From: Gammaproteobacteria bacterium
GTDB taxonomy: Bacteria; Pseudomonadota; Gammaproteobacteria; Steroidobacterales; GCA-2729495
Length of the DNA stretch: 64,000 nucleotides
Reading direction: 5' to 3'
Assembly (NCBI GenBank): GCA_013001905.1
Contig: JABDLC010000102.1
Coordinates: forward strand, 279-64,278
The translations under genes were made by a program, and so were the position numbers. The notes below the pieces were generated by a model. The model had not been told where the DNA came from, searched no databases, and saw nothing but the letters and a program-made list of their open reading frames with translations. Shown in pieces: positions 6,064 through 63,800 of this stretch (positions within the stretch are counted from its first letter, which is position 1; every line of letters begins with the position of its first letter).

Positions 6064-9000
6064 TCAGCGGCCTGATTGCTTTTCGCTTAGTGCTTGGACC
6101 TGCTTGCCTACTACTTTAGCGATTTCACTGTGGAAGGGTTCAAGCATGAACTGCATGTGGTCGCTAACACCCGGTGTTGGGATCAGCTGCAGTCCGTGAT
6201 CAAACAGCCCGGACCAGTACTCATTAATATGGCGCAATTTTTCTTCTTCAAAGTCTGCGCAGAACAGCACGCCACTCACATCCGACGGCTGATACTGGTA
6301 CGAGGCGAAGGATTTTCGTGCCGTTCCGACATGCTGGACAGCCCGCAATTGGAACGGCACTTCCTTGCCCACTAAGCGGTAGGCATAGGTTGCGAGAATG
6401 CGGCCTACGTAGTGACTGCGTGCTGCCAGCGTCTTGAATGCACGCAAGGAAAAGAATTTGAGCGCGGCCAGCCGATTGCCTTTGATGGCCAGTTGCTGGA
6501 TGACCCACCGGGCGCGCGACAGACCGGCCCAACGTGTGTCCGTTGGGTCAATGAGCGCGAGGTAGGCAATTTCGTCACCCGCAGCGCGCAATTGGCGTGC
6601 CATTTCAAATGCGGCGAGGCCGCCGAGACAATAGCCCACGAGATGGTAGGGCCCTCTCGGCTGCACTCTTTTTAGCTCCCTGATATAGGTCGCTGCGAGT
6701 TCCTCAATCGTTTTCGGCATACGGAATTTAGGGTTGTATGAAAAATAAATCCCGTAGAGTGGTTGCTCATCGTCCATCACGCGCGCCATTTTCATGGGCT
6801 CGCCATGAATGCAGAACAGCGGCGGTCTGGAGCCGCTGGTGCGTATCGGCAGCAAGGCGCTGCCTGACGCTATTTCGGCGGCGACGCTATCGTAATCAGT
6901 TTCTGCATTAATCTTCCGTGCGAGTGCGGCAACGGTCGGATTCTCGAATACGGTAGCCACCACGATACGCACACCGGTGGCTTCTTCGATTCGCTTGATC
7001 AGTTTGAGGATCAGGAGTGAGTGCCCGCCGAGGGAGAAAAAATCATCGTGTATGCCGACTTTTTCAGCCTGCAGCGCTTCTGCCCACAGTTCGCATAAGA
7101 GGGTTTCCGTTTGGGTTGTCGGAGCCGTGTATCCTGTGCGGGCGCCCCACTCAGGCGTCGGCAGTGCCTTCCGGTCCAGTTTGCCGTTTGCCGTTTGGGG
7201 GATCGTTGCCAACTGCATGACGACGGACGGCACCATGTAGGCGGGCAGTTCATCTCCGACAAAACTCAGTAGCTCATTTTCGATCGGGCTCTCCGGGTTA
7301 TCCGTCGCCGCATAGGCCACCAGCCGACGATCTCCTTCCGCAACCTCATAGACGATCGCTGCGGCGTCATGAACGGCGGGGTGTTCTCGCAGTGCGGCTT
7401 CAATTTCGCCCAGTTCGATGCGGTGGCCGCGCAGTTTGATCTGGTCGTCGACGCGCCCCATGAACTCGATGTTGCCGTCTCGCAGATAGCGCACCCGGTC
7501 GCCGGTTCGATACAGCCGCTCACCGGACTGGGCCGCAAACGGATTCTGCACGAACTTCGCCGCTGTAAGCTCTGGACGATTCAGGTAACCGCGTGACAGA
7601 CCGTCGCCACCAATATACAGCTCGCCAATCACACCCTCAGGTACCGGGTTCATGTGTTCATCCAGTATGTACACAGTGGTGTTGGCAATGGGTTTGCCAA
7701 TTGGGACGCTGCGCCAGTCCGGCTGGTCCGCAGGAATAAGGTAGCTGGTTGTAAACGTTGTCGATTCCGTTGGTCCGTAACCGTTAATCAATTTCGTGCC
7801 CGGCAGCAGTTTTGCCGCTTTGCGAATATGGCTGATCGACAAGGCTTCACCGCCGGTCATGATGACCCCGCTGCCGCGCAGTATCTCCGGCTCGGTATCA
7901 ATGATCGAGTTGAACAGGGTGGATGTGAGCCACAACAAATCAATTTGGTTGGCAGCGAAGAAGCGCCGCAGCTCATCCAGCCCCGGCACGCGCTCGCTAA
8001 AGATCACGCACTCGCCGCCGTTCAGCAGCGCGCCCCAGATTTCAAGCGTAGAGGCATCGAAGGAAATGGGTGCGAGGACGCCGATGCGCATGCCTTCGTC
8101 GAGAGGTGTGAAATAGTTGTTGATGACCAGGCGCAGCACGCTCTTCTGCTCGATCAGCGTGCCTTTGGGTTGGCCGGTAGAACCGGATGTGTAGATCACA
8201 TAGGCAAGGCTTTCTGCGCTACTCACGGTCGGTGGGTTGCTGTCCGGCAGCGATTCCAGTTGCGCATTGATGCCGTCCAGATCGATACGTTTTGTTTCTC
8301 CGGTTGGCAATTGCGGGTTGATGTCGCTGCGTGTGAGCAACACCGGGCTGGCAGTGTCTTCCAGCATGAACTGCAACCGCGCCTCGGGATAGGCGGGATC
8401 CAGTGGCACGTAGGCAGCCCCCGCTTTAGTGATTGCGAGTATGGTTGTGATGGCGTCGATACCCCGATCGAGACTCAGTGCAACGAGGGTTTCATGACCG
8501 ATGCCCTGGTTGCGCAAATAGTGAGCCATCCGGTTTGCACGTGAATTGAGTTCGGCATAGGTCAGCGTTTCTCCATCGCAACTCAGCGCCGTGGCGGTCG
8601 GCGTAGCCGCAACCTGCTCCTCGAAACGCGCCTGGATGCCTGTGCGCGGGTAGTCCCGCTGAGTTGTATTTTTTTCTGCCAGGAGCTGCGTGCGTTCCTG
8701 GTCAGCCAGAATCGGCAACGAATACAGCGGTACGTCGGGTGTGGCAACAATGGCATTAAGCAACAGTTCAAAATGCTCGGCCAGACGACGGATCGTACTT
8801 TCATCGAACAGATCGGTGTTGTAGCTGAAGTGCGCCAGCAGGCCGTCCGGCGATTCCTGAGTTGACAGCGTGATGTCAAACTTTGTGGTGGTGATGTCGA
8901 ACGCAACATTACTGACATCGAGCCCGGCAAAGCTCATGCCGTCGCCGAGAGGCTGCTGCAACATGAACATCACCTGGAAAAATGGCGTGTAGCTCATTTC

Positions 9001-63800: not shown

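Follow-up and report, generated by a model that had tools for sequence, protein, structure and literature searches.

A very long nonribosomal peptide synthetase line of an uncultured marine gammaproteobacterium, with a probable thiazole-forming start

Background

Linear gramicidin (LgrA-D, which we take to comprise 16 modules in four proteins), syringopeptin (SypA-C, presumably 22 modules) and kolossin (presumably 15 modules) are made by nonribosomal peptide synthetase (NRPS) lines with which the locus considered here can be compared. This locus fills most of a 64,000-nucleotide stretch of DNA (hereafter the window; positions 279 to 64,278 of contig JABDLC010000102.1, gammaproteobacterial assembly GCA_013001905.1), where four large open reading frames (ORFs A to D) encode 16 NRPS modules. 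The line resembles these three systems in its collinearity, in its length of more than 15 modules and in its predicted mixture of D- and L-residues, and module 10 carries the same specificity code as module 2 of syringopeptin (Pro). It differs from them in a predicted product that is rich in Gly, Pro and Ser, twice N-methylated and capped by a thiazole, in its uncultured marine gammaproteobacterial host and in the absence of any close sequence relationship, and it ends in a Cys-type thioesterase (TE), whereas Lgr ends in a reductase.

Other described systems correspond to parts of the line. As in tubulysin TubB/TubC, docking domains of the TubC_N type (PF18563) stand on ORFs A, B and D, the donor proteins have acidic tails, and methyltransferase (MT) domains are embedded in adenylation (A) domains; in contrast to tubulysin, the line in the window has no polyketide synthase modules, is much longer and would link ORF B to ORF C not by TubC_N but through a poly-Arg tail and the acidic N-terminus of the latter. 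In close relatives of the locus, the protein that precedes ORF A resembles bacillamide BmdB/BmdC and bacitracin BacA in its order of adenylation, carrier (T), heterocyclisation (Cy), adenylation and carrier domains, with a Cys code and an oxidase (Ox) part that matches BmdC. It departs from those systems in that the Ox domain is part of the same polypeptide, behind the carrier, the first A domain has no Asp235, and 16 more modules follow. All of the components are thus of known type: type-A NRPS modules, A-MT domains as in TioS, TubC_N docking, a thiazol(in)e start like that of BmdB/BmdC or BacA, and a TE subfamily prone to a Cys nucleophile.

We put at roughly 85% the probability that the 16 modules in the window are numbers 3-18 of a type-A NRPS line spread collinearly over several proteins, that the host, an uncultured marine gammaproteobacterium, belongs to one species with the metagenome-assembled genome (MAG) GCA_018678275.1, and that the line begins with a thiazole start, as deduced from relatives. 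Below, modules 1-16 are those found in the window.

Results and discussion

Sixteen modules in four proteins

The earlier note, made by reading the sequence alone, had listed four minus-strand ORFs of 2606, 7271, 2156 and 7124 aa within 6064-63800, and both coordinates and lengths were reproduced; the 2606 aa of ORF A correspond to 55980-63800, read from a TTG codon. The four ORFs cover ~57.5 kb free of stops and frameshifts, and the G + C content (~0.60) is even along the whole window. Pfam scans of module-sized pieces gave 16 sets of PF00668 (condensation, C), PF00501 with PF13193 (A) and PF00550 (T) in canonical order, and additionally two extra Condensation-type domains (epimerisation, E), two MT inserts, one Thioesterase and three TubC_N domains (Table 1). 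The module count, the domain order and the positions of the MT, E and TE domains proposed previously were thereby all borne out. The 16 carrier serines lie in GG[HD]S[LI] motifs, module D3 (the third of ORF D) having the variant SGGHSL, and within proteins they stand 3126-3198 bp apart in plain modules, 4344 bp in the single MT module that allows the measurement, and 4578 and 4587 bp where an E domain is included. Over protein boundaries the spacing is 3285-3657 bp. The HHxxxD motif, also said to be intact throughout, is so in all 18 domains concerned (16 C and two E), and the A3 and A8 motifs, Lys517 and the carrier motif GG[HD]S are present in 16 of 16 modules.

Table 1. Positions of the NRPS genes, modules, docking domains and adjoining genes in the window (residues are predictions from specificity codes)
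Feature	Position	Strand	Description
3' end of fifth NRPS gene	63760-64000	minus	79 codons (63763-63999) and stop (63760-63762); Ox-domain tail and acidic docking tail ...DERDEGEI
ORF A	55980-63746	minus	2588 aa from ATG 63746; TubC_N-C-A(MT)-T-C-A-T
TubC_N of ORF A	63582-63722	minus	PF18563, 61.3 bits
Module 1, C-A(MT)-T	59211-63521	minus	DIMQLGMIWK, Gly and N-methylation (sarcosine) predicted; MT insert 60288-60587
Module 2, C-A-T	56052-59141	minus	DVQYVAQVVK, Pro-like; code type kept in relatives
ORF B	33909-55724	minus	7271 aa; TubC_N, six modules and one E: TubC_N-C-A-T-C-A-T-C-A(MT)-T-C-A-T-C-A-T-E-C-A-T; C-terminal tail RKQRRRRRKPTK
TubC_N of ORF B	55569-55712	minus	PF18563, 57.9 bits
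Module 3, C-A-T	52401-55508	minus	DVWHISLIDK, Ser
Module 4, C-A-T	49266-52337	minus	DILQLGMIWK, Gly
Module 5, C-A(MT)-T	44925-49214	minus	DLYNNALTYK, Ala-like and N-methylation predicted; MT insert 45999-46298
Module 6, C-A-T	41757-44867	minus	DVQYIAHVVK, Pro
Module 7, C-A-T-E	37155-41684	minus	DAFTTALVWK; carrier GGDSI; E ~37155-38522 (approximate limits), HHMAIDWVSW
Module 8, DCL-type C, A-T	34002-37121	minus	DVWHLSLIEK, Ser
ORF C	27435-33905	minus	2156 aa; two modules, C-A-T-C-A-T, no TubC_N, acidic N-terminus
Module 9	30714-33836	minus	DVQFIAHVTK, Pro predicted
Module 10	27516-30635	minus	DVQYIAHVTK, Pro predicted
ORF D	6064-27438	minus	7124 aa; TubC_N, six modules, one E and TE: TubC_N-C-A-T-E-C-A-T-(C-A-T)x4-TE
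TubC_N of ORF D	27286-27426	minus	PF18563, 51.3 bits
Module 11, C-A-T-E	22714-27216	minus	DVWHISLIDK, Ser to D-Ser; carrier GGDSI; E ~22714-24081 (approximate limits)
Module 12, DCL-type C, A-T	19531-22677	minus	DAQHVGGMTK; A5 motif atypical, NGLGLTE
Modules 13-15, C-A-T each	16387-19458, 13255-16329, 10075-13158	minus	DILQLGMVWK in all three, Gly-Gly-Gly
Module 16, C-A-T	6916-10014	minus	DALWMGGTFK, Val
TE domain	6067-6846	minus	PF00975; Cys6937/Asp6964/His7094; motif GYCLG; Cys codon TGT 6628-6630
Amidohydrolase (nitrilase superfamily)	5267-6058	minus	NF007757 equivalog, 282.9 bits vs cut-off 249; 5 nt downstream of ORF D
MFS transporter	4022-5263	minus	413 aa; MFS_1; Tet(A)-type efflux match below cut-off

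A comparison of all C and E domains placed the two E domains together, whereas the C domains next downstream of each, B_6337 and D_1729, fall into a DCL-like class of their own and the other 14 C domains one LCL-like group. The carriers ahead of the E domains have the motif GGDSI and all remaining carriers GGHSL. Both the DCL-like C domains and the GGDSI carriers agree with the D-residues predicted at modules 7 (B5) and 11 (D1).

The two MT inserts, matched by PF08242, lie between the A8 and A10 motifs (module 1: A8 at 943, the S-adenosylmethionine-binding GxGxG motif VLEVGCGTG at 1071, A10 at 1434; module 5: A8 at 3013, the corresponding motif IVEIGSGTG at 3142, A10 at 3503). This is also the arrangement of TioS A4-M4, and the A-MT region of module 1 aligned with the TioS A-M-A structure 5WMM over residues 5-888 of the 900-residue query (E 9e-132); the substrate in TioS is Val, whereas Gly and Ala are predicted here. 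As neither Gly nor Ala offers a side-chain nucleophile, the MTs would act in cis to N-methylate the tethered Gly (module 1) and Ala (module 5).

A line of repeated modules recovered from a metagenome invites the suspicion that the locus is a mis-assembled chimera, or a decaying one, that makes nothing, and a short-read MAG contig of the same region (L161, described below) does break in module 16. The uninterrupted ORFs and intact catalytic motifs described above nevertheless argue against it, as do the agreement of L161 with the window (99.97%), a module spacing that is the same in relatives, and the divergence of the internal repeats, so that we hold such an artefact to be exceedingly improbable. 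The internal module repeats share at most 74% DNA identity and the C domains are at most 64% identical to one another; the modules are old duplicates, and at this level of DNA identity the three Gly modules 13-15 are not an assembly duplication.

A fifth protein and a probable thiazole start

Relatives of the locus were sought with the N-terminal 542 aa of ORF A (docking and C domains) among 5.8 billion proteins, one genome each for 185,579 species, and 241 million metagenome records; loci and protein records recovered in this and other searches are referred to by L and P numbers.

The stop codon of a preceding gene fragment comes after the TTG codon at 63800, and for this reason the ATG at 63746, which opens MKASQASLQFIDQL and follows that stop by 13 nt, is most likely the start of ORF A. 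In relatives, the homologues of ORF A begin at the Met that corresponds to this one. Neither ORF A, taken from the ATG, nor ORF C was found on record by exact sequence. Scans for promoters and terminators in the A-B gap and the 3' flank gave no signal above chance.

The fragment is the end of a fifth NRPS gene. It aligned with residues 1890-1959 of a 1959-aa protein of L001, a Gammaproteobacteria MAG (53% identity over ~70 residues, E 2e-12), and with the counterpart in L002. In L001 the ORF A homologue directly follows the gene of this protein, which has the composition A-T-Cy-A-T-Nitroreductase. The Ox part of the protein has a match in BmdC (7LY5, E 9e-36), the thiazoline oxidase of bacillamide, and its second A domain has the code DLYNMSLIW, which is listed among Cys codes tied to Ox modification (PMC12283262). 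Such a protein precedes the ORF A homologue in loci L001-L004, L081 and L083-L085, each with the Cy domain (a weak Condensation match, 97 bits), the Cys-coded A domain (DLYNMSLIW) and the Ox domain (PF00881, or BmdC). Given the homology of the fragment to this protein, which is A-T-Cy-A(Cys)-T-Ox in four relatives collinear with the window, the line most likely comprises 18 modules in five proteins and would make an acyl-thiazole-capped peptide. Thus "at least 16 residues", as the product was first described, was the right hedge, since the line runs on upstream of the window, and "four-protein" was an undercount: a fifth protein ends within the window, and in relatives it carries the loader and the thiazole module.

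The opposing view is that no module precedes ORF A: the line would be complete with the 16 modules of the four ORFs, and the first C domain of ORF A would be a starter C domain (e.g., for lipo-initiation). ORF A does open with a C domain, and the window contains no loading A-T didomain. However, the TubC_N domain of ORF A needs a partner tail, and a fragment with exactly such a tail (...DERDEGEI) stops 13 nt ahead of the ATG; this fragment shares homology with the C-terminus of the loader/thiazole protein found ahead of ORF A homologues in the loci just named, and the first C domain groups with ordinary LCL domains. A line complete in four proteins is therefore largely refuted and very unlikely. 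We favor the longer line, the initiation module of which would lie outside of the window; in relatives, the homologous upstream protein opens with an A-T module.

In relatives, the first A domain of the loader has FG[FY]S instead of FDxS, and is thus without Asp235, and NTYAITETGG instead of NxYGPTE. Because Asp235 is missing, this domain probably takes an acid without an alpha-amino group. A comparison of the relatives' loader A domain with the PDB gave no clue to the substrate.

The genes beside the loader vary among relatives. In three of them, a 120-aa QueD equivalog (6-carboxytetrahydropterin synthase) overlaps the loader start (L001:3763-4125, L081:734-1096 and L084:3741-4106) and is probably translationally coupled to the loader gene. 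Together with the loader A domain devoid of Asp235, this overlap raises the idea of a pterin-derived starter, which we regard as a long shot. In others, a divergent 2-oxoglutarate-Fe(II) oxygenase (PF13640) adjoins the loader in place of QueD (L002:2866-3660, L003:2774-3559, L085:2774-3559 and L004:2329-3054). We take PF13640 to be a prolyl-4-hydroxylase-like family, so that a Pro residue may be hydroxylated. A LamG-domain protein is encoded farther upstream of the loader in L001, L002, L003 and L084.

Docking between the proteins

The TubC_N domains of ORFs A, B and D scored well above the PF18563 cut-off of 26 bits (Table 1), whereas the Pfam scan found no TubC_N domain in ORF C. Acidic C-termini are present on the upstream fragment (...DERDEGEI), ORF A (...DSDREEFRI) and ORF C (...DEDREEFEL), that is, on the proteins encoded ahead of the three TubC_N domains, and would dock on these partners. 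At the B/C junction (33903-33950), ORF B instead ends in the poly-Arg tail RKQRRRRRKPTK and ORF C begins with an acidic head, and the same pair occurs in a relative (L018:3580-3700); this junction may use a different, electrostatic docking mode. ORF A itself is a fusion (59141-59211, compared with L001:14587-14760), as all close relatives have separate Sar and Pro-like proteins with an extra pair of acidic tail and TubC_N domain.

Specificity codes and the predicted peptide

The 16 A domains were aligned by MAFFT to residues 184-526 of GrsA-PheA (1AMU), and the nine pocket residues and Lys517 were extracted. All 16 ten-residue codes that had been read by eye were recovered letter by letter. 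The A core of module 1 has its nearest counterpart in the second A domain of LgrA, presumably a Gly module. The code of module 5 is one residue off DLFNNALTYK, which we take to be an Ala code.

The Gly, Pro, Ser and Val calls are in accord with published codes. DILQLGMIWK is on record for Gly and DVWH[LM]SLVDK for Ser (PMC12283262), DVQYIAHVVK and DVQYVAHVVK for Pro (PMC9113097), DVQYIAHVTK for the Pro of syringopeptin module 2 (PMC2866473) and DALWMGGTFK for Val (PMC3943440). A Pro code that bears Gln322, as does that of module 2, is also on record (DVQFVSQVMK; PMC9113097).

The peptide proposed in the earlier note thus stands as far as the published Gly, Pro, Val and Ser codes reach, and the codes of modules 7 and 12 are without assignment; a full-text literature search for the two (DAFTTALVWK and DAQHVGGMTK) found nothing. 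The lower pocket of module 7, ALVWK, is shared with a Cys code, which suggests a small residue. At the position of module 12, relatives have codes of the same type (DAMHVGGLA, DAMHVGLIA and DAMHVGGLV), which is found in L018, L019 and P0241, and the terminal module of L162 has DAQHLGGMV, again of this type. The substrate of module 12 looks like a family-specific building block; in the PDB, its A domain had only generic NRPS matches, with no clue to specificity.

The predicted product is (R-CO-thiazole)-Sar-Pro'-Ser-Gly-NMeAla-Pro-D-X1-Ser-Pro-Pro-D-Ser-X2-Gly-Gly-Gly-Val, where Pro' denotes the Pro-like call of module 2.

A cysteine thioesterase

As the earlier note had it, the line ends in a TE, which is found as PF00975 at the C-terminus of ORF D; its nucleophile is Cys rather than Ser. 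Cys6937 aligns on the catalytic Ser of the TE structure 7CRN, and the TEs of relatives are also Cys enzymes (GFCVG in L162 and GYCLG in P0241). Among the 150 representative TEs closest to that of ORF D, drawn from the representatives of a library of 1.84 billion proteins, 50 have Cys and 94 Ser, and the six closest all have Cys. By this count, the Cys nucleophile is, on sequence grounds, a trait of the clade and not an oddity.

In the TEs of ObiF and SulM, Cys likewise replaces the catalytic Ser. Release as a beta-lactone or beta-lactam was considered on this account and rejected: SulM has Gln-Cys-Asn around the nucleophile, whereas the window has Tyr-Cys-Leu, and the last residue, predicted to be Val, has no beta-OH or beta-NH2 for closure of a four-membered ring.

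Flanking genes

An amidohydrolase gene follows ORF D and is probably co-transcribed with it. Only one record of this enzyme was found (P0121, MAG: Gammaproteobacteria bacterium), which is 100% identical and starts six codons earlier. The gene order amidohydrolase, DUF1761, GATase and major facilitator superfamily (MFS) transporter is also kept in L163-L165, which have no NRPS genes, and because of this synteny the block at window 2736-6058 is best described as a housekeeping flank. A role of the amidohydrolase in tailoring or maturation was rejected, as it is an NF007757 equivalog with the same neighbors in NRPS-free genomes. The NRPS cluster appears to have been inserted beside this block. 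Between the amidohydrolase and DUF1761 lies the 413-aa MFS gene, which the NRPS-bearing L161 and L162 share and the NRPS-free L163-L165 lack; it is tentatively a candidate exporter and a member of the cluster. In L162, a methionine aminotransferase gene lies between the TE and the amidohydrolase.

Consistent with the earlier note, no MbtH, phosphopantetheinyl transferase (PPTase), PF00975 type II TE or oxygenase was found among the scanned ORFs of 1-6064. An alpha/beta hydrolase at 1817-2776 was considered as a type II TE and rejected, being neither a PF00975 protein nor homologous to the post-GATase gene of L162.

Distribution of the cluster family

Window 3343-9836 is 99.97% identical to the 6494-bp contig JAHHNK010000036.1 (L161) of the gammaproteobacterial MAG GCA_018678275.1, which carries the amidohydrolase gene of record P0121. 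This contig, a product of short reads, stops at window 9836, within the C domain of module 16, and contig-wise mining for biosynthetic gene clusters would probably miss the size of the cluster in this fragmented genome.

The closest relatives of the ORF A docking and C domains are from Nau_16, Arabian10_MAG_56, Chromatiales NP37, Pseudomonadota XB_MAG54 and ocean metagenome contigs (61-69% identity); the search with the ORF A N-terminus found no cultured organism among the close relatives, and none above 69% identity. These figures bear on whether the cluster makes a product that is already characterized, with a counterpart in MIBiG. In favor of this, the individual codes are common ones. Against it, the nearest proteins to the part of ORF A searched are all MAG or metagenome sequences, and neither the protein, genome and metagenome searches with this part nor the full-text literature yielded a characterized or named relative; literature queries on the accessions, the unusual codes and thiazole/sarcosine marine NRPSs gave nothing relevant. 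Nor is any compound known to us that combines an acyl-thiazole cap with Sar-Pro-Ser and a Gly3-Val tail. A known product is thus improbable, and as far as these searches reach the line is an orphan one.

The relatives are collinear with the window, with whole-protein identities of 54-66% at matching positions. The distance from the start of ORF A to that of ORF D is 36.31 kb in the window and 36.36 kb in Arabian10_MAG_56, where module 8 is predicted to take Gly rather than Ser and module 13 has a Pro-like rather than a Gly code. P0241 is an ORF D homologue of three modules with the same Cys-TE. Across the related loci (L001-L004, L018, L019 and L081-L085), the G + C content ranges from 38 to 60% and protein identity from 54 to 69%; on these values, the cluster family would therefore be old or widely transferred within marine Gammaproteobacteria. 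We rate as about evenly balanced the broader proposal that these loci form one conserved family of very long NRPSs restricted to an uncultured marine gammaproteobacterial clade (G + C content of the cluster region 38-60%), probably with 18 modules here and with fewer in at least one relative. Their undescribed scaffold would consist of a thiazole cap with a non-amino-acid starter, a Gly/Pro/Ser-rich D/L backbone with two N-methyls, a recurrent residue specified by DA[QM]H[VL]G... codes and a variable C-terminal tail, released by a Cys-TE.

Proposed pathway

From the genes described above, the following pathway can be proposed. To judge from relatives, the upstream protein would load a carboxylic acid without an alpha-amino group, join it to Cys, and cyclodehydrate and oxidize the product to a thiazole. 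The acyl-thiazolyl intermediate would pass to ORF A through the ...DERDEGEI tail on the ORF A TubC_N domain. The 16 elongation modules, in the gene order A-B-C-D, would then add Sar, a Pro-like residue, Ser, Gly, NMe-Ala, Pro, X1 (epimerised), Ser, Pro, Pro, Ser (epimerised), X2, Gly, Gly, Gly and Val. Hand-over from A to B and from C to D would proceed by acidic ...REEF(R/E)(I/L) tails onto TubC_N domains, and that from B to C by the poly-Arg tail onto the acidic N-terminus. Finally, the Cys-Asp-His TE would free the chain by hydrolysis or macrocyclisation, and the adjoining MFS pump may export the product.

Several points weigh against this reading. The loader and the thiazole module are deduced from relatives, since this genome shows no more of the upstream protein than its final 79 residues, and PPTase and MbtH genes were not found in the window. 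The collinear order of the proteins rests solely on gene order and on the logic of the docking tails. Residue calls from codes are predictions; DAFTTALVWK and DAQHVGGMTK, two codes out of 16, are unassigned, and the Gln322 code of module 2 is merely similar to known Pro codes. For the release of the chain, the sequence does not discriminate between hydrolysis and macrocyclisation.

Conclusions

All domain types and the docking logic of this line are known, and it offers nothing mechanistically new to NRPS enzymology; it is of value as a well-defined target for genome mining, distributed in the environment, and not as a new mechanism. The predicted sequence, its variation among relatives (Ser or Gly at module 8, and the length of the tail) and the Cys-TE provide concrete targets for heterologous expression or a mass-spectrometric search. 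If the predictions hold, the line would be among the longer bacterial NRPS lines, from a family that recurs in ocean metagenomes and is found in no cultured organism, and its product, with a thiazole cap, Sar, N-Me-Ala, four Pro, four Gly and two D-residues, could be an ecologically relevant marine peptide.

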